Source: a phage
Reading direction: 5' to 3' (one strand)
NCBI GenBank assembly: GCA_032298335.1
Contig: GCA_032298335.1_4702.1
Length of the DNA stretch: 43,865 nt
Positions 143 through 43,865 of the stretch are shown in pieces; the stretch's first letter is position 1, and every line of letters starts with the position of its first letter. The translations under genes and the position numbers were made by a program. The notes under the pieces are model-generated. The model was not told the DNA's origin and made no database searches. It saw only the letters and a list, made by a program, of their open reading frames with translations.

Positions 143-340
143 TGATTGCACATGCAAGCATGTAAGATGCCAATAGGTCGCGGTCTGTAGACCGCTAAAG
201 AAAGAGAATAGTAATAAGATGCAGTAGGAGGAACACCAGAAGCCTAGCCAACCTAGCCTATCCTAGCTCTGTATCTATTGCTTTTCCTTAGTCTCACATG
301 TTAGACAACCTATATTATTCTTAGTGATGATAACTTAGTG

Positions 341-1303: not shown

Positions 1304-1657
1304 ATGGCTATGTCTAATATGACTTACTCTCAGGTTTACAACACCGCTCATGCTGCATTAGTTGAACGTATCTGGAATGATGCTATTGATTGTATTGATA
1401 ACGCACATGATGCAATCCATGATGCGGCGGATAGTGCTGTACCAATCTATTATGCTGACATCTTCTCCGTGATGGCGAGTGAAGGAATTGATCATTTCTT
1501 CGAAGACTCCGGCCTGATGCCAGACACTAAGGATGTAACCGTAGTATTGCAAGCCCGTATCTATGAGCAACTCACAATTGATCTATGGGAACGTGTTCAG
1601 TATATGATTGTTGAATACGTCAACTCCGCCGAATATTTAGAAGAAGAAGAGGAATAA
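1304..1657 (+). CDS. ocr: Ocr-like anti-restriction DNA-mimic protein (T7 gp0.3 homolog)
   Basis: 117-aa acidic protein. Starts MAMSNMTY and contains [42 protein letters not shown] and [15 protein letters not shown] with an acidic C-terminus, matching T7 Ocr as I recall it. GAGGA ribosome-binding site before the ATG at 1304. Confidence 0.85.
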
Positions 1658-2140: not shown

Positions 2141-3064
2141 ATGACTACTGAAAACATCCTCCTGTCTGTCCGTGAAGCTGCAACCGCTGAGATTAAGCAG
2201 CATTTGGATAATATCGGCACTTCTTACATCAAAGTTGGCGCTTGTCTGAATGAATTACGCGGTGATTTCGAAGGTCAAAAAGACTTTTTAGCTTATGTAG
2301 AATCAGAGTTCGGCATCAAGAAAGCACAATGCTACAAGCTGATGAGTGTAGCCCGTGTCTTTGAAGGAGACGAACGCTTTAAAGGTGTGGCTATGCGTGT
2401 AATGCTGGCGCTTGTTCCTTTCGCTGATGAAAATATAATCATGGAGAAGGCCGCAGAACTCGCCGCAGAGGGCAAGCTGGACACTAACGCCGTAAACGCC
2501 CTGATTGATCCTAAGAAAGAGACAAAGGCCGAGACGGTACAATCTAAGGTTGAGTCGGTAAAACCGCAGGAGAACGCGACTGAGGCCGCAGAAACTATGC
2601 AAGGACATGCAACCTTTGAGGATTTCATCTTAGAGAAGGCGAAAGAGGATTTACAAAGTGTGCCGCCAGTAAGTGAGTCGGGTAACGACGAATCCGCACC
2701 GTGGGAAGATGAAAGCAAGCCGGAAGACACAAAGGCAGCGCCACGGGATAACACGGCTAATACTGAGAATGCCGCTATTGCTGGTCTGCTGGCACAAATT
2801 AAAGCACTGACTGAGCAATTACAGGCAGCTAATGGCCGCATTGCCTCCTTAAGCAGCGCACGCGAAAGCAAGAAAGCAGCCGCGCCTATGCTGCCGCAAT
2901 TCAAATCTTCCTGCTTCTATGCTCGCTTAGGTTTAAGCGCTGAGGAGGCAACGAAGAAAACAGCAGTTAACAAGGCACGCCGCGAACTGGTTAAGCTAGG
3001 CTACGGCGAAGGCCATGAAGCATGGCCCTTAATCTCTGAGGCAGTAGAAGAATTAACTAAGTAA
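2141..3064 (+). CDS. Hypothetical early protein (307 aa)
   Basis: Long early ORF at the position T7 uses for the gp0.7 kinase, but no kinase motifs seen; ribosome-binding site AAGGTGA before the ATG at 2141 (the ORF track starts at a GTG at 2132). Confidence 0.6.
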   Translation: MTTENILLSVREAATAEIKQHLDNIGTSYIKVGACLNELRGDFEGQKDFLAYVESEFGIKKAQCYKLMSVARVFEGDERFKGVAMRVMLALVPFADENIIMEKAAELAAEGKLDTNAVNALIDPKKETKAETVQSKVESVKPQENATEAAETMQGHATFEDFILEKAKEDLQSVPPVSESGNDESAPWEDESKPEDTKAAPRDNTANTENAAIAGLLAQIKALTEQLQAANGRIASLSSARESKKAAAPMLPQFKSSCFYARLGLSAEEATKKTAVNKARRELVKLGYGEGHEAWPLISEAVEELTK

Positions 3065-3127
3065 CCTTATCGGTGGCATCTTCTTAGGTGTCACCTATTA
3101 AGGTTTCTTTCACTAGGAGTAAACAAG

Positions 3128-5755
3128 ATGCAAGACCTACACGCTATTCAACTTCAACTTGAAGAAGAAATGTTTAACGGCGGTATCCGTCGCTTTGAAG
3201 CGGACCAACAACGCCAGATTGCATCCGGTAATGAATCAGACACGGCATGGAATCGCCGCTTATTGTCCGAGTTAATCGCGCCAATGGCTGAAGGTATTCA
3301 GGCATACAAGGAAGAGTATGAAGGTAAAAGAGGCCGTGCACCGCGTGCATTAGCTTTCATTAACTGCGTAGAAAATGAAGTGGCAGCGTATATCACGATG
3401 AAAATCGTTATGGATATGCTGAACACGGATGTAACCTTGCAGGCTATAGCCATGAATGTAGCTGACCGCATTGAGGACCAAGTACGTTTTAGCAAGCTGG
3501 AAGGTCACGCCGCCAAATACTTTGAAAAAGTTAAGAAGTCACTTAAGGCAAGTAAGACTAAATCATATCGCCATGCGCACAACGTAGCGGTAGTGGCTGA
3601 GAAGTCAGTAGCTGACCGTGACGCTGATTTCTCTCGCTGGGAAGCGTGGCCTAAAGATACCTTGCTACAAATTGGGATGACCTTGCTTGAAATCTTAGAG
3701 AATAGCGTATTCTTCAACGGGCAACCTGTCTTCCTCCGCACCTTGCGCACTAATGGCGGAAAACATGGTGTTTACTACCTACAGACTAGTGAACACGTAG
3801 GTGAGTGGATAACTGCATTTAAAGAACATGTAGCGCAACTTAGTCCCGCCTATGCACCTTGCGTTATTCCTCCGCGTCCGTGGGTGTCACCCTTTAACGG
3901 TGGGTTTCATACTGAGAAAGTAGCAAGCCGTATTCGTCTGGTAAAAGGCAATCGTGAGCACGTCCGCAAGCTGACCAAAAAGCAAATGCCAGCGGTTTAC
4001 AAGGCTGTTAACGCTTTGCAGGTGACTAAGTGGCAGGTTAATAAAGAGGTTTTACAGGTTGTGGAGGACGTTATACGTCTAGACCTCGGCTATGGTGTAC
4101 CTTCCTTTAAACCACTCATCGACCGTGAGAACAAGCCAGCTAATCCGGTGCCGTTAGAGTTCCAGCACCTGCGAGGCCGTGAACTGAAAGAAATGCTTAC
4201 GCCGGAACAATGGCAAGCCTTTATCAACTGGAAAGGTGAATGTACTAAGCTGTACACCGCTGAAACTAAGCGCGGAAGCAAATCGGCGGCAACCGTTCAC
4301 ATGGTTGGTCAGGCCCGTAAATATAGCCAGTTCGACGCAATCTACTTCGTGTATGCACTGGACAGCCGCAGCCGTGTATACGCGCAATCTAGCACACTCT
4401 CACCGCAATCAAATGACTTGGGCAAGGCCTTGCTCCGTTTTACCGAAGGGCAGCGTCTTGATAGCGCTGAGGCGCTTAAGTGGTTTTTGGTGAACGGGGC
4501 TAATAACTGGGGTTGGGATAAGAAAACTTTTGACGTGCGCACTGCTAACGTGCTGGATAGTGAATTTCAAGACATGTGCCGCGACATTGCAGCGGATCCG
4601 CTGACCTTCACTCAATGGGTAAATGCCGACTCCCCTTACGGCTTCCTTGCATGGTGCTTTGAATATGCGCGTTATCTGGATGCACTGGATGAAGGCACGC
4701 AAGACCAATTCATGACGCACCTCCCAGTCCATCAAGATGGTAGTTGTTCTGGTATCCAGCACTACAGTGCTATGCTACGCGATGCAGTAGGTGCGAAAGC
4801 AGTAAACCTTAAGCCCTCTGACTCTCCTCAAGATATTTATGGTGCCGTTGCGCAGGTAGTAATTCAGAAGAATTATGCATACATGAATGCAGAGGGTGCG
4901 GAAACCTTCACTTCTGGCAGCGTGACTTTAACAGGTGCGGAACTGCGTAGTATGGCTAGTGCGTGGGATATGATAGGAATCACTCGCGGCCTGACCAAAA
5001 AGCCCGTAATGACACTACCTTATGGCAGCACACGTCTAACCTGCCGTGAGTCAGTGATTGATTATATCGTTGATTTAGAAGAAAAAGAGGCCCAACGGGC
5101 TATTGCGGAAGGGCGTACCGCCAATCCTGTACACCCTTTTGACAATGACCGTAAGGACAGCCTGACACCTAGCGCAGCTTATAACTATATGACAGCTTTA
5201 ATCTGGCCTTCTATTTCGGAAGTGGTTAAAGCTCCTATAGTGGCAATGAAAATGATTCGTCAGCTTGCACGTTTCGCAGCTAAAAGGAATGAAGGCTTAG
5301 AGTACACCTTGCCTACTGGCTTCATCTTGCAACAAAAGATAATGGCGACAGATATGCTCCGCGTATCTACTTGCTTGATGGGAGAAATCAAGATGAGTCT
5401 ACAGATTGAAACGGACGTAGTGGATGAAACGGCTATGATGGGCGCTGCTGCCCCTAACTTTGTGCACGGTCATGATGCCAGTCACCTTATCTTAACGGTC
5501 TGCGACCTTGTTGATAAAGGGATTACATCTATCGCAGTAATTCATGATTCTTTTGGCACTCATGCAGGTCGCACCGCAGACCTACGTGATAGTCTAAGGG
5601 CAGAAATGGTGAAGATGTATCAAGGCCGTAACGCTCTGCAAAGCCTGTTAGATGAGCATGAAGAACGCTGGTTAGTAGACACCGGAATCCAAGTGCCAAA
5701 GCAAGGAGAGTTTGACCTTAACGAAATCTTAGTATCTGACTATTGCTTCGCATAA
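3128..5755 (+). CDS. Single-subunit DNA-directed RNA polymerase, SP6-type
   Basis: 875 aa. Begins [32 protein letters not shown] and contains [33 protein letters not shown] and IHDSFGTHA, near-identical to SP6 RNA polymerase as recalled; T7 RNAP-family catalytic motifs present. Confidence 0.97.
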
Positions 5756-5763
5756 TATTAATA

Positions 5764-5795
5764 GGCCATTCCTTCGGGAGTGGCCTTTTCTTTTT
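5764..5795 (+). terminator. Intrinsic terminator after the RNA polymerase gene
   Basis: 9-bp stem GGCCATTCC / GGAGTGGCC (one G-U pair) with a TTCG tetraloop, followed by TTTTCTTTTT. Confidence 0.75.
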
Positions 5796-5829: not shown

Positions 5830-5845
5830 GTCTCACATGTGAGAC
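5830..5845. repeat. 16-bp perfect palindrome GTCTCACATGTGAGAC (copy 1)
   Basis: Exact self-complementary 16-mer immediately upstream of a promoter variant. Confidence 0.9.
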
Positions 5846-5847
5846 TT

Positions 5848-5868
5848 ATTTACCGGACACTATAGGAT
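5848..5868 (+). promoter_or_regulatory. Phage RNA polymerase promoter variant (ATTTACCGGACACTATAGGAT)
   Basis: Matches the window consensus ATTTACTGGACACTATAGAAG except at -11 and +3/+4. Confidence 0.6.
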
Positions 5869-5916
5869 AGCCGTCGGAGACGGGAAAGAAAGGGAAGATA
5901 AAGGATATAAAAGGAA

Positions 5917-5963
5917 GTAATAGGTATTAAAGGTTATATAGGTTATCTAGGAATACCTATTAC
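5917..5963. repeat. 12-bp perfect inverted repeat flanking a 23-bp AT-rich spacer
   Basis: GTAATAGGTATT at 5917-5928 and its reverse complement AATACCTATTAC at 5952-5963, inside an AT-rich non-coding stretch between two promoters. Confidence 0.8.
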
Positions 5964-6011
5964 CTTCTTCCTTCCTCTTATTACTACTTAGAGGAAGGGC
6001 AGATCTAGGTT

Positions 6012-6027
6012 GTCTCACATGTGAGAC
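6012..6027. repeat. 16-bp perfect palindrome GTCTCACATGTGAGAC (copy 2)
   Basis: Exact repeat of the palindrome at 5830, again directly upstream of a promoter variant. Confidence 0.9.
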
Positions 6028-6032
6028 TTCGT

Positions 6033-6053
6033 ATTTACCGGACAGTATAGATA
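6033..6053 (+). promoter_or_regulatory. Phage RNA polymerase promoter variant (ATTTACCGGACAGTATAGATA)
   Basis: Promoter-like sequence with C to G at -5 and a changed +3; upstream of the gp1.1-like and primase genes. Confidence 0.5.
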
Positions 6054-6211: not shown

Positions 6212-8200
6212 ATGGCTATTATTCAGAATGTACCGTGTCCTGCCTGTCAAAAGAATGGACATGATATTACTGGCAACCATCTTATGATATTTGAGGATGG
6301 CGCTGGTTACTGTAACCGTGGTCACTTCCATGATAATGGGAAGCCTTATTACCATAAGCCAGAGGGTGGTATCGAGATAACCGAATTGCCTATTACTGGC
6401 AATATCAAATATACACCTTCTCAATTCAAAGAAATGGAGAAGGAAGGGAAGATAAGCGACCCTAAGCTACGCGCCATCGCACTTGGTGGTATGCGTATGA
6501 AAGACCGTTGGGAGGTTATGAATGAGCAAGAAAGGGCAGACCAAGAAGCAGAGTGGAAACTTGATGTTGAATGGTTCCTCACGCTTAAGCGTAAGAACCT
6601 TGTATCCCGTCACATTCGAGGTGACATCGCAGCAATGTACGATGTGCGCGTTGGACACGATGAAGAGGGAAGAGTCAACCGTCACTATTATCCACGATAT
6701 GAAAAGGGTGTGCTTGTTGGAGCAAAATGCCGGACGTTGCCGAAGGATTTTAAGTTCGGACACCTAGGTAAACTCTTTGGTATGCAAGATCTTTTCGGTA
6801 TGAATACTTTGTCTCACGTGTTAGACAAGGGGAGGCGAAAGGATTGCTTGCTTATTGTAGGCGGTGAACTTGATGCACTAGCAGCGCAGCAGATGCTCCT
6901 TGATTCTGCCAAGGGTACTAAGTGGGAAGGACAACCATATCATGTGTGGTCTGTCAACAAGGGCGAGTCTTGCCTTGAAGAGATAGTGCAGAACCGTGAG
7001 CATATCGCCCAATTCAAGAAGATTATATGGGGTTTTGATGGAGATGAGGTAGGGCAGAAGCAGAATCAGCAAGCGGCTCGCCTGTTTCCTGGCAAATCCT
7101 ATATCCTTGAATACCCCTCTGGTTGCAAAGATGCTAACAAGGCATTGATGGCTGGCAAGGCCAAAGAGTTTGTTGATGCATGGTTTAATGCCAAGTCATC
7201 TGATGAAGTCTTTGGTAGCCAGATTAAATCTATCGCATCTCAAAGGGATAAGCTCAAGGCTGCACGTCCAGAGCAAGGACTATCATGGCCTTGGCCTAAG
7301 CTGAACAAGGTAACGCTAGGTATTCGTAAGAACCAACTTATCATTGTAGGCGCAGGCTCTGGTGTAGGTAAGACTGAGTTCCTTCGTGAAGTAGTTAAGC
7401 ACCTCATTGAAGAACACGGTGAATCTGTAGGCATCATTTCTACAGAAGACCCGATGGTCAAGGTGTCCCGTGCTTTTATCGGCAAGTGGATTGATAAGCG
7501 TATTGAGTTACCGCCAACCAACGACCCTAAAGAAGACGGATACCGTGAGGTGTTCGACTACACCGAGGAAGAAGCTAACGCCGCCATTGATTATGTAGCT
7601 GATACAGGTAAGCTGTTTGTAGCTGACCTAGAGGGTGACTATTCGATGGAAAAGGTAGAGCAAACTTGCCTAGAGTTTGAGGCTATGGGCATTTCTAATA
7701 TCATCATTGATAACTTAACGGGGATTAAATTAGATGAGCGTGCTTTTGGTGGGAAGGTTGGTGCACTTGATGAATGCGTCAAGCGGATTGGTACTATCAA
7801 AGACCGACACCCGGTTACTATATTCCTTGTATCACACCTTACACGTCCTCCGGCAAACCGTACCCAACACGAAGAAGGTGGCGAAGTTATCCTTTCTGAC
7901 TTCCGAGGCTCAGGCGCTATCGGATTCTGGGCATCTTACGCCTTGGGGATTGAGCGTAATACAAGAGCTGAAACGCTTGACGAAAGGACTACCACGTACA
8001 TCTCTTGTGTCAAAGACCGCGACCAAGGAATATTTTCCGGTACTCGTATAATGCTTAAAGGTGATATTGCTACTGGTCGATTACGTGAACCAGAGCAAAG
8101 ATCTCGACCGTTTGATACTGGTGCTCCAAAAGAACAAACTGTACCAGAAGAAGTAGTGGATAAAGGAGGATTTATTGCTGACGAAGTTGAAGAGTTTTGA
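6212..8200 (+). CDS. Bifunctional DNA primase/helicase (T7 gp4-like)
   Basis: N-terminal zinc-ribbon CPACQ...CNRGHFH; Walker A GAGSGVGKTEF; helicase motifs IIIDNLTG and VSHLTRPPANRTQHEEGGEVILSDFRGSGAIG paralleling T7 gp4; acidic C-terminus ending EEF. Confidence 0.95.
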   Translation: MAIIQNVPCPACQKNGHDITGNHLMIFEDGAGYCNRGHFHDNGKPYYHKPEGGIEITELPITGNIKYTPSQFKEMEKEGKISDPKLRAIALGGMRMKDRWEVMNEQERADQEAEWKLDVEWFLTLKRKNLVSRHIRGDIAAMYDVRVGHDEEGRVNRHYYPRYEKGVLVGAKCRTLPKDFKFGHLGKLFGMQDLFGMNTLSHVLDKGRRKDCLLIVGGELDALAAQQMLLDSAKGTKWEGQPYHVWSVNKGESCLEEIVQNREHIAQFKKIIWGFDGDEVGQKQNQQAARLFPGKSYILEYPSGCKDANKALMAGKAKEFVDAWFNAKSSDEVFGSQIKSIASQRDKLKAARPEQGLSWPWPKLNKVTLGIRKNQLIIVGAGSGVGKTEFLREVVKHLIEEHGESVGIISTEDPMVKVSRAFIGKWIDKRIELPPTNDPKEDGYREVFDYTEEEANAAIDYVADTGKLFVADLEGDYSMEKVEQTCLEFEAMGISNIIIDNLTGIKLDERAFGGKVGALDECVKRIGTIKDRHPVTIFLVSHLTRPPANRTQHEEGGEVILSDFRGSGAIGFWASYALGIERNTRAETLDERTTTYISCVKDRDQGIFSGTRIMLKGDIATGRLREPEQRSRPFDTGAPKEQTVPEEVVDKGGFIADEVEEF

Positions 8201-9158: not shown

Positions 9159-9170
9159 TAAGTCAAGGGT

Positions 9171-9188
9171 TGTCTCACACGTGAGACA
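9171..9188. repeat. Palindrome variant TGTCTCACACGTGAGACA (copy 3)
   Basis: 8-bp arms identical to the 16-mer palindrome with an altered central dinucleotide; followed by a T-rich stretch. Confidence 0.8.
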
Positions 9189-9218
9189 GCCTTTCATCAT
9201 ATTGATTGGAGGTGCATT

Positions 9219-14312: not shown

Positions 14313-14328
14313 GTCTCACATGTGAGAC
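14313..14328. repeat. 16-bp perfect palindrome GTCTCACATGTGAGAC (copy 4)
   Basis: Exact copy, 16 nt upstream of the promoter at 14344. Confidence 0.9.
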
Positions 14329-30948: not shown

Positions 30949-30965
30949 TACCTAACTCAAGGCTT

Positions 30966-30981
30966 GTCTCACATGTGAGAC
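30966..30981. repeat. 16-bp perfect palindrome GTCTCACATGTGAGAC (copy 5)
   Basis: Exact copy between the two large internal virion protein genes, followed by GGTCTTTA. Confidence 0.9.
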
Positions 30982-31012
30982 AGGTCTTTATGATAGGCAC
31001 TATGGAGGAACT

Positions 31013-43213: not shown

Positions 43214-43675
43214 ATGGAAGTTTGGAGGCCTATTGCTGGTATACCAGATTACATGGTTTCCTCCTTTGGTCGTGTTAGATCTCATAAAAGAGGTAAGGTT
43301 ACTATACTAAACCCTCCGCACGACAAAGGGGGTTATCGTAATGTTGTGCTACGTGTTAATGGTGAAAAGATAAATCGCAAGGTACATAGGCTTGTGGCAG
43401 AGGCTTTCTTACCTAATCCTCACGGTTTACCTCAAGTAAATCACAAGGATGAAGTAAGAGACAATAATCATGTAAGTAATCTGGAGTGGTGTGATTGTGC
43501 ATACAACGTAGATTACTCTCAAGCAGCTACTTATACTGTGATGTGCCCTAAAGGTAATATCTTAGTAGTAAGGAATGTGGCTAAGTTTTGTAGGGAAAAC
43601 GGATTAAGCAGTGGTTCTTTTACAGATATGCTTAAGGGGAGACGTAAGCAACATAAGGGTTATCGCTTAGTGTAA
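43214..43675 (+). CDS. HNH homing endonuclease (second copy)
   Basis: HRLVAEAF ... NP ... PQVNHKD ... NLEW HNH motif; C-terminal FCRENGL ... KG(R)RKQHKG block shared with the 8175-8663 protein; AT-rich. Confidence 0.85.
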   Translation: MEVWRPIAGIPDYMVSSFGRVRSHKRGKVTILNPPHDKGGYRNVVLRVNGEKINRKVHRLVAEAFLPNPHGLPQVNHKDEVRDNNHVSNLEWCDCAYNVDYSQAATYTVMCPKGNILVVRNVAKFCRENGLSSGSFTDMLKGRRKQHKGYRLV

Positions 43676-43865
43676 TACTTAGTGAGAGGGCTATACATGC
43701 CAAGTGGAAAATTTGATATGTATATGCGTCAAGTGTCTCGCCCTCGCCCTCGCCGGGTTGCCCCCCATAGGGTGGCCTGAGGGAATCCGTCTTCGACGGG
43801 CAGGGCTGATGTACTCCTTGCCTAGTACAAGGGAGGCGGAGGGAACGCCTAGGGAGGCCTAGGAA

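Follow-up and report, generated by a model that had tools for sequence, protein, structure and literature searches.

Results

An early gene beside the RNA polymerase gene encodes a conserved protein

We analysed a 43,865-nucleotide (nt) stretch of phage DNA (contig GCA_032298335.1_4702.1 of NCBI GenBank assembly GCA_032298335.1; hereafter the window), and in particular the gene at positions 2141-3064, which encodes an early protein of 307 amino acids (aa). This protein joins an N-terminal helix-turn-helix (HTH) domain of ParB/KorB type to a C-terminal J-like domain, and a single residue of its predicted recognition helix co-varies between phages with the arm sequence of a palindrome that is scattered through their genomes. 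The window is the nearly complete genome of a Vectrevirus (K1E/K1-5/SP6-like Autographiviridae); the 1.4 kb that was queried is 98% identical to Vectrevirus LI10P3 and Escherichia phage 6948. The coordinates of all features are collected in Table 1.

The open reading frame (ORF) begins with an ATG that is preceded by an AAGGTG ribosome-binding site. A mechanical ORF list starts it at GTG 2132, which we did not take as the start because it lies inside that ribosome-binding site, and a homologue with 97% identity is likewise 307 aa long. An earlier note on this DNA, made from the sequence alone, had described the gene as the largest early ORF before the polymerase gene, at the position of the T7 gp0.7 kinase. 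This description is correct: from the left end up to the RNA polymerase gene, no other ORF exceeds 122 aa. We assign the gene to the early region because it lies between sigma70-like promoters and a terminator-like hairpin behind the polymerase gene.

Homologues were found by tblastn in 214 phage records, at identities down to about 30%. Their carriers infect Escherichia, Klebsiella, Salmonella, Proteus and Erwinia (Molineuxvirinae), and further homologues occur in Vibrio, Pseudomonas, Marinomonas, Aeromonas, Pectobacterium and Ralstonia phages. In the 11 genomes that were opened, the homologue lies directly 5' of the RNA polymerase gene or one to two small ORFs away from it, and 132 relatives were present among 1.84 billion representative proteins. 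The gene has a narrow distribution, restricted to phages, and belongs to the syntenic core of the SP6-like branch.

The earlier note had also stated that the protein has no assigned function, and database annotation agrees. All 214 records label the homologue as hypothetical or mis-annotate it, and the only PHROG match of the protein is PHROG 4571 ('unknown function'; full length, E-value 2e-129). Comparison with Pfam, NCBIfam, PADLOC and PDB sequences gave nothing significant, with no Pfam match at E<=1; PADLOC is a weak test in this respect, being made up of defence rather than anti-defence models. In the literature searched, which did not extend to the original SP6 and K1-5 genome papers, we found no published function for the protein family or for DUF3102 (see below), nor any mention of the palindromes. 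Domain signals surfaced only once the 132 representatives had been collected and each of them scanned. Family alignments comprised either 12 diverse homologues or 133 sequences.

The protein combines a ParB/KorB-type HTH domain with a J-like domain

An AlphaFold2 model built on the 133 sequences has a mean predicted local distance difference test score (pLDDT) of 82. Residues 10-125 form six helices with pLDDT >90, of which those at 46-57 and 61-74 make up the HTH. The model matched ParB-type DNA-binding domains, namely those of KorB (scores of 7.1 and 6.6), ParB (5.9), Spo0J (5.8) and SopB (5.2). VirB (4.9), P1 ParB (4.8) and SV40 large T antigen (4.8) scored just below the line. When each family member was scanned against Pfam, 42 of the 133 matched DUF3102 (PF11300) in the HTH region at E<=0.01 (best E 2e-10); most of these matches fall below the gathering score of 24.4 bits, and at least one passes it (P0239, 25.0 bits). 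The structural neighbours of the 307-aa protein in BFVD are DUF3102 proteins. The protein itself has no DUF3102 match in Pfam at E<=1 and, as far as sequence can tell, is a distant relative of DUF3102 and not a scored member. A ParB/Srx-type CTP-binding domain (GxxRxxA box) is missing: the HTH is preceded by no more than one 30-residue helix, and the 25 Pfam families most matched by the 133 members do not include ParBc. The likeness to ParB is limited to the HTH module.

The earlier note's account of a structured N-terminal region followed by a long acidic, low-complexity middle is borne out by the model, which adds a feature that the note had missed, a well-folded C-terminal stretch of 100 residues (pLDDT 86-98). 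The disordered linker varies in length and sequence in the alignment, and the whole protein is acidic (isoelectric point, pI, 5.0). A conserved linker motif recurs nonetheless, with P[FW][DE] in acidic context at the linker place in 39 of the 132 representatives by strict matching, and again in the profile consensus. The linker is followed by a single long helix with weak coiled-coil matches, which probably serves for dimerisation, and by the most conserved stretch of the family, PMLPQF; within it P249, L251, Q253 and F254 are invariant across the 12 diverse phages, and LPQF is kept in nearly all 133 representatives.

The compact C-terminal domain has the J fold, with a helix II/III hairpin onto which helix I is packed. 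DnaJ matches in this domain were obtained for 13 of the 133 family members when each was scanned against Pfam. J domains top the list when the family profile is compared with the PDB (2ys8, E 9e-4; 6jzb, E 0.012), and a profile of the C-terminal domain aligned with five canonical J domains with an hhalign probability of 96.5% (P 9e-10). Structural matches were to the J or J-like domains of DNAJC27 (7.2), RabJ (6.9), Tim14 (5.8), Tim16 (5.5) and ERdj5 (5.5). The helix II-III loop (GYGEGH, aa 287-292, nt 2999-3016) lacks the HPD tripeptide, reading L-G-Y-G-E-G-H here and HYNPDTN, IYTAATCP or FKGN in other clades. Because HPD is lacking, we call this domain J-like and not a J domain. One distant member, P0244, is the only one with FHPDK in the loop and has no DnaJ score by itself; its loop is a hint of descent from a protein with a true J domain.

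A family of palindromes lies at gene boundaries

A dimeric HTH protein suggests a palindromic operator, and we therefore looked for one. The candidate is the 16-base palindrome GTCTCAC-NN-GTGAGAC. In the window GTCTCACATGTGAGAC occurs in four perfect copies and three with one or two mismatches, a total of seven against 0.22 expected, and none of 100 shuffles reached seven. In this densely coding genome only one copy falls within a gene; the other six lie in intergenic DNA and follow a stop codon at a distance of 2-20 nt. Three stand directly 5' of phage promoters or promoter-like sequences, covering -35 to -20, -38 to -23 and -48 to -33 relative to the transcription start.

Many of these sites have syntenic counterparts. 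The left-end copy corresponds to sites at 493 in SP6, 741 in Era103, 387 in PM116, 533 in Kp7, 571 in VEN, 378 in Njord and 361 in CPP1m, and left-end palindromes abut phage promoters in PM116 and Era103. The arrangement of copy 2 is also found after the RNA polymerase gene in SP6, Kp7, PM116 and VEN; copy 4 has the same offset as sites at SP6 7071 and Kp7 7049; copy 6 is syntenic with SP6 14255, PM116 15692 and Era103 14272; and copy 7 with SP6 30569, Kp7 32162 and PM116 31971. Right after the early terminator, positions 5830-6053 hold a palindrome, a phage promoter, a 140-nt A+T/purine-rich stretch, a second palindrome and a promoter-like sequence, a layout that is kept in SP6, Era103, PM116, Kp7, VEN and L059 and that we take to correspond to the T7 primary replication origin in both position and organisation. 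A left-end site next to a promoter, together with a site pair after the polymerase gene, is presumably where T7 has its primary and secondary origins.

The palindromes travel with the gene

Palindromes of the same design, in multiple copies, are present in all 12 full genomes that carry a homologue. Arms reading GTCTCAC are found with a 2-nt centre in Era103 (7-9 copies) and with a 3-nt centre in Vibrio phage VEN (8) and the Pseudomonas phages Njord (10-11) and Alpheus (8). GTC(T/C)AAC-NN occurs in SP6 (9 copies), GTCCAAC-NN in Kp7 (7) and GTCCAAC-NN(N) in PM116 (5-6), while PP99 has GTCTAGT-NN (6-8), Reminis and Tola have TGTCTC(C/T)TA (5-7 and 6-7) and CPP1m has GTTCGAG-AT (4-5). Almost every homologue-bearing genome examined holds 3-11 copies, and the syntenic places are the left end, the DNA just past the RNA polymerase gene, the primase gene or its 3' side, the 5' side of the promoter at about 14-16 kb, and the space between internal-virion-protein genes.

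T7 and phiKMV, both without a homologue, have no such palindrome family; their largest family has two copies, the level of shuffled sequence. The association was also approached from the motif: in a scan of IMG/VR, 11 of 12 stretches with at least two copies came from phage relatives with SP6-like genes, and five of those stretches contained the homologue itself, including two new lineages at 32% and 35% identity. In Gajwadongvirus-like phages a second palindrome family, GTACTAG-N4-CTAGTAC, stands beside the GTCT-type family, with sites at 161, 7939, 8017 and 16305 in L018 (PP99) and at 5504-5783 and 14719 in L020 (Reminis, reverse strand).

One residue of the recognition helix co-varies with the palindrome arm

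Over a set of 53 loci, the arm sequence changes in step with the recognition helix, and no locus contradicts this. Proteins with Q63/K66 (..KAQ-Y-K66-LM..) accompany GTCTCAC at 24 of 24 loci in six lineages, a group made up of Vectrevirus, Era103-like phages, Vibrio and Pseudomonas phages, L085 and L097; those with Q63/N66 (..KAQCY-N66-LM..; H66 in SP6) accompany GTC(C/T)AAC at 18 of 18 loci. Further pairings are W63/R66 with GTCTAGT, W63/K66 with TGTCTC(C/T)TA, and Y63/R66 with GTCTACA (10-11 copies in L059), and CPP1m, whose helix is very different, has GTTCGAG at the same syntenic positions.

In a tree of RNA polymerases the window (K66) is nested in the N66 clade and Era103 (K66) is basal; therefore the protein and all its scattered sites changed together at least twice, including a reversal (K to N to K). 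The window protein is 63-70% identical to N66 proteins as against 35-45% to other K66 proteins, and by this measure overall similarity would predict the opposite grouping to the arm classes. We compared 2147 ungapped alignment columns (229 of the 307-aa protein, 842 of RNA polymerase, 450 of primase-helicase and 626 of DNA polymerase), and column 66 was the only one to separate the two large arm classes cleanly, one of the classes having a single residue there. If the turn glycine G58 is counted as position 9, K66 would be position 17 of the classical 20-residue HTH motif, a standard base-contacting position, and the classical side-chain preferences, Lys for G:C and Asn for A:T, would fit the two arms.

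DNA element or RNA hairpin

As plain RNA hairpins the palindromes found no general support. Pooled over 15 genomes, arm mismatches on the coding strand comprise 17 G.U, 12 A.C and 16 others, which is no bias towards G.U; four of five tested palindrome hairpins were no more stable than shuffles; and Rfam has no family that matches the palindromes. The innermost C:G of each arm is invariant, though it cannot pair across a 2-nt centre. Two extended + strand hairpins, around copies 5 and 7, are excepted. Equivalent hairpins stand at syntenic sites in SP6, Kp7, PM116, VEN and Njord, and those of the window may be terminators or 3'-end stabilisers. Most likely the 307-aa protein reads the double-stranded DNA form, and some copies are additionally built into RNA hairpins.

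Other features of the early region and the genome ends

Two phage-promoter-like sequences lie in the early region just 5' of the 307-aa gene, at 1757-1777 and 2104-2124. Among them, ATTTAGCTGACACTATAAGAG has the correct spacing but A at +1, and ATTTACTTACACTATATAAGG is 1 nt short with T at +1; given these sequences, the phage polymerase might also read the 307-aa gene and the polymerase gene. The gap between those two genes (3065-3127) holds a small palindrome, AGGTGTCACCT. In Colwellvirinae a full operator-type palindrome stands between homologue and polymerase gene (VEN 3055, Njord 3200), which suggests autoregulation or control of polymerase expression in those phages.

The left end (19-460) carries 15 short CTTAG(T/G) repeats on the + strand, ten of them spaced about 12 nt apart in 19-143, and two further copies lie near the right end (43666-43684). 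Copies of CTTAGTG bracket a sigma70-like early promoter (CTTAGTG-TTGACA ... CTTAGTG-TAATAC at 334-369). These repeats were our first candidate for the operator of the 307-aa protein, and the candidate was dropped; T7 has analogous end repeats and no homologue of the protein. The left-end repeats may be the counterpart of the T7 end repeats. A NUMOD4/HNH_3/I-HmuI-like homing endonuclease gene is located near the right end, at 43214-43675.

Table 1. Features of the 307-aa protein gene, the candidate operators and their surroundings in the window
Feature	Positions	Strand	Remarks
Early-protein gene	2141-3064	+	ATG 2141 to TAA 3062-3064; 307 aa; homologue of K1E gp6, K1-5 gene 6 and SP6 gp6/gp7; PHROG 4571
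N-terminal domain, aa 1-125	2141-2515	+	ParB/KorB-type HTH DNA-binding fold, distantly DUF3102
Helix-turn-helix, aa 46-74	2276-2362	+	DFLAYVESEF-GIK-KAQCYKLMSVARVF
K66 codon	2336-2338	+	Predicted specificity residue of recognition helix
Acidic disordered linker, aa 126-205	2516-2755	+	pLDDT about 44-63, pI 4.3, net charge -11
Conserved linker motif NDESAPWED	2684-2710	+	Family pattern: acidic run, then [AVP]-P-[FW]-[DE]
Long helix, aa 206-243, predicted coiled coil	2756-2869	+	38 residues, pLDDT 86-95
PMLPQF motif, aa 249-254	2885-2902	+	Most conserved stretch of family
J-like domain without HPD, aa 255-307	2903-3061	+	Compact, helical
SP6-type RNA polymerase gene	3128-5755		875 aa; begins 63 nt after the 307-aa ORF
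Sigma70-like early promoters	341-369; 925-953
Terminator-like hairpin with T run	5763-5786		3' of polymerase gene
Ocr (DNA-mimic anti-restriction) homologue	1304-1657		Pfam ocr E 8.5e-42; PHROG 2568
Palindrome copy 1	291-306		GTCTCACATGTTAGAC; left end, 5' of all early promoters
Palindrome copy 2 (perfect)	5830-5845		Covers -35 to -20 of first phage promoter, ATTTACCGGACACTATAG, at 5848-5865
Palindrome copy 3 (perfect)	6012-6027		5 nt 5' of promoter-like sequence 6033-6050
Palindrome copy 4 (2 mismatches)	6811-6826		Within primase-helicase gene
Palindrome copy 5	9172-9187		14 nt past stop codon; tip of 13-bp + strand RNA hairpin
Palindrome copy 6 (perfect)	14313-14328		2 nt past stop codon; 15 nt 5' of phage promoter 14344-14361
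Palindrome copy 7 (perfect)	30966-30981		Between two internal-virion-protein genes; tip of 13-bp RNA hairpin
Extended hairpin around copy 5	9165-9194	+	13 bp; folding free energy (dG) -17.9 kcal/mol; z -5.2
Extended hairpin around copy 7	30959-30988	+	13 bp; dG -17.6 kcal/mol; z -4.0

Discussion

The co-variation of residue 66 with the palindrome points to a protein that acts on phage DNA, and we think it fairly probable that the 307-aa protein is a modular, probably dimeric, sequence-specific DNA-binding hub of KorB-like character that acts on the phage's own chromosome. In the mechanism that we propose, the HTH domain would read half-sites of sequence GTCTCAC, with Lys66 setting the base preference at half-site position 5. 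The targets would be the seven palindromes, located mostly at gene or transcription-unit boundaries and in several cases, namely at the left end, twice behind the RNA polymerase gene and at about 14.3 kb, directly 5' of promoters for the phage RNA polymerase; each would be bound by a dimer held together by the coiled coil, with enough freedom in the long, flexible linker to accommodate a spacing of either 2 nt or 3 nt. A partner would be recruited to the palindromes through the C-terminal module and the acidic P-[FW]-[DE] motif. One protein made early could in this way mark a set of operators and coordinate the phage programme, much as KorB does for plasmid RK2. Control of transcription boundaries is suggested by the positions of the sites, and our preferred output is control of middle-gene promoters and of such boundaries, with the marking of promoter-associated replication origins as second choice.

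Several observations weigh against this model. The case for the pairing of protein and palindrome is computational and correlative. Two phages, L057 and L061, carry the homologue (with the helices FSKAHTYRLMR and IKKSWAFKLMAV) and no multi-copy palindrome in the 11-21 kb scanned, so that either their sites lie elsewhere or they are exceptions to the rule. Spacer length differs between lineages, being either 2 nt or 3 nt, and PM116 has both; such variation would be uncommon with a fixed dimer and is what hairpins typically show. One to three syntenic copies per genome form the tips of longer + strand hairpins built with G.U pairs; at these hairpin-embedded copies an RNA role is likely. Nor do the palindromes stand at a constant distance from the promoter start (-20, -23, -33), which disfavours a fixed contact with the polymerase. 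As to the protein, its HTH domain is net acidic (-5), a Foldseek search of the model against the PDB was not significant, and the 307-aa protein itself falls below every Pfam threshold.

One rival explanation sees in the palindromes RNA elements unrelated to the 307-aa protein, such as terminator tips, processing sites or hairpins that stabilise 3' ends; the co-variation would then reflect shared ancestry, and the protein would bind other DNA or none. The location of copies shortly past stop codons, the stable G.U-paired hairpins around copies 5 and 7 with their syntenic counterparts, and a spacer that varies as a loop would are all in keeping with such elements, as are the asymmetric copies of SP6, which stand 6:1 in the G.U orientation, and one PM116 site that its annotators labelled a terminator. 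On the other side, 28 of the 45 pooled arm mismatches would break an RNA stem, the other four hairpins are no more stable than shuffles, no Rfam family matches, and left-end copies lie 5' of the early promoters. Furthermore, the arm sequence itself, beyond its pairing, is conserved from E. coli phages to those of Vibrio and Pseudomonas, and column 66 of the protein alone splits the arm classes cleanly, phylogenetic reversal included. We judge a pure RNA explanation to be distinctly unlikely. A somewhat stronger rival, still unlikely in our estimation, keeps the DNA binding and has the protein mark promoter-associated origins, where it would recruit replisome proteins or DnaK through an SSB-tail-like motif (SSB, single-stranded DNA-binding protein) and the J-like domain, on the pattern of SV40 large T antigen, where a J domain is joined to an origin-binding domain. 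The conserved layout at 5830-6053, in which two copies flank a promoter and the A+T/purine-rich stretch, speaks for it, as do the left-end copies of PM116 and Era103, which adjoin phage promoters. In lambda, P1 and polyomaviruses J domains have a part in replication, and the linker motif DDxx-P-F-D presumably resembles the SSB C-terminus DDDIPF. However, SSB tails need a free C-terminus and the linker motif is internal, the J-like domain lacks HPD, several copies are remote from any plausible origin, being located in the primase gene or amid virion genes, and the literature searched contains no mapped origin for these phages.

A new host-takeover or anti-defence function, which the earlier note had put forward, would make the protein a J-like decoy, bound to DnaK or to a J protein of the host but not activating it, or let the acidic linker mimic DNA or an SSB tail against host nucleases, with the HTH as an anchor only. 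The early gene beside Ocr, the acidity of the protein, a J-like fold that keeps its basic helix II and has lost HPD, and conserved partner motifs, which point to a target conserved across gamma-proteobacteria, are compatible with this idea. Nevertheless, at least three subfamilies, with hosts in many genera ranging from E. coli to Vibrio and Pseudomonas, keep the gene as a core gene in strict synteny, unlike accessory anti-defence genes; PADLOC has no match; and a ParB/KorB-type HTH whose residue 66 co-varies with a palindrome of the phage's own genome links specificity to phage and not to host DNA. The evidence points elsewhere, and we regard the idea as improbable, although the J-like domain or the acidic motif may still connect the protein to the host. 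Confident homology to a housekeeping or structural family, which the note had named as evidence against its proposal, did not emerge from the profile and structure searches. A ParB-like role in partition or condensation, in which loading at the palindromes and subsequent spreading would organise or segregate the phage DNA, would account for a ParB-type HTH and multiple centromere-like palindromes. We rejected it because the protein lacks the CTPase domain on which clamp formation and spreading depend; the gene map, moreover, contains no ParA partner gene, a lytic 44-kb phage has no obvious need of partition, and the possibility is very slight indeed.

The likenesses of the 307-aa protein to known systems concern its parts. 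KorB, the ParB-family global regulator of IncP plasmid RK2, shares the HTH type of DNA-binding domain, with no detectable sequence identity (11-13%). The 307-aa protein has neither a ParB/Srx CTPase domain nor the C-terminal dimerisation domain of KorB; its effector part is a coiled coil with a J-like domain, the nearby promoters serve a single-subunit phage polymerase, and its binding is a prediction. By analogy it would work like KorB, and because it lacks the CTPase domain we do not count it as a member of the ParB/KorB family. Compared with ParB/Spo0J/Noc, SopB and VirB, whose HTH domains are similar, it is much smaller, has another domain context and is again not a family member. The link to DUF3102 adds no mechanism, this family being named only in lists, with no function, in the literature searched.

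The C-terminal domain has the fold of helices I-III known from DnaJ/Hsp40 and Tim16/Pam16 proteins, with the LG(L/V)S, KAYR-L and EA--L signature and a basic helix II; it lacks HPD, and helix IV is missing. It probably belongs with the J-like domains, which bind partners without stimulating Hsp70, and is closest in concept to the HPD-less Tim16. Polyomavirus large T antigen and E. coli CbpA both combine a site- or shape-specific DNA-binding module with a J-type module in one polypeptide, and large T antigen is an early viral protein that acts on repeated sites at the origin and promoter region. The comparison is an analogy only: the DNA-binding parts are unrelated, the domain order is reversed, and both proteins have a true J domain with HPD. 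T7 gp0.7, a kinase that shuts off host functions, occupies the same slot as the 307-aa gene, since in both genomes no other large early gene stands between it and the RNA polymerase gene. The C-terminal domain of the T7 kinase binds DNA (PMC13645617). A relationship between the two proteins, or a kinase function for ours, was rejected: the hhalign probability against gp0.7 is 0.1% and neither Pfam nor NCBIfam gives a kinase match, in line with the earlier note, which had seen no recognisable kinase motifs.

We are thus able to propose a candidate regulator-operator system in a phage group that was thought to lack one. To our knowledge, the textbook view of the T7-type programme invokes polymerase switching, promoter strength and genome entry, and no sequence-specific DNA-binding regulator. 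A more far-reaching version, which we offer as speculation and consider doubtful, is that in SP6-like phages (Molineuxvirinae, Colwellvirinae and relatives) one early protein acts on 7-11 palindromic operators and so provides a layer of control absent from T7; with its degenerate J domain and SSB-tail-like motif it would recruit the replisome or a chaperone of the host, both at promoter-linked origins and at transcription boundaries. Such a system would be a bacterial-virus counterpart of the polyomavirus large T antigen design, with a re-engineerable code in which K66 stands for C and N66 for A.

The more limited prediction of a DNA-binding hub is unusually testable, as it names a protein, seven sites and a single specificity-switch residue. 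If it is true, DUF3102 would gain a first functional handle and the J-like domain would join the effector modules of phages. The phages concerned form a large group in use for therapy (K1, Klebsiella, Salmonella, Proteus, Erwinia and Vibrio) and for biotechnology (the SP6 polymerase system), and in their engineering the palindromes should not be blindly deleted or moved. Overall, a conserved HTH protein with genome-wide operators would, if confirmed, revise the T7-type picture for the SP6/K1E branch.

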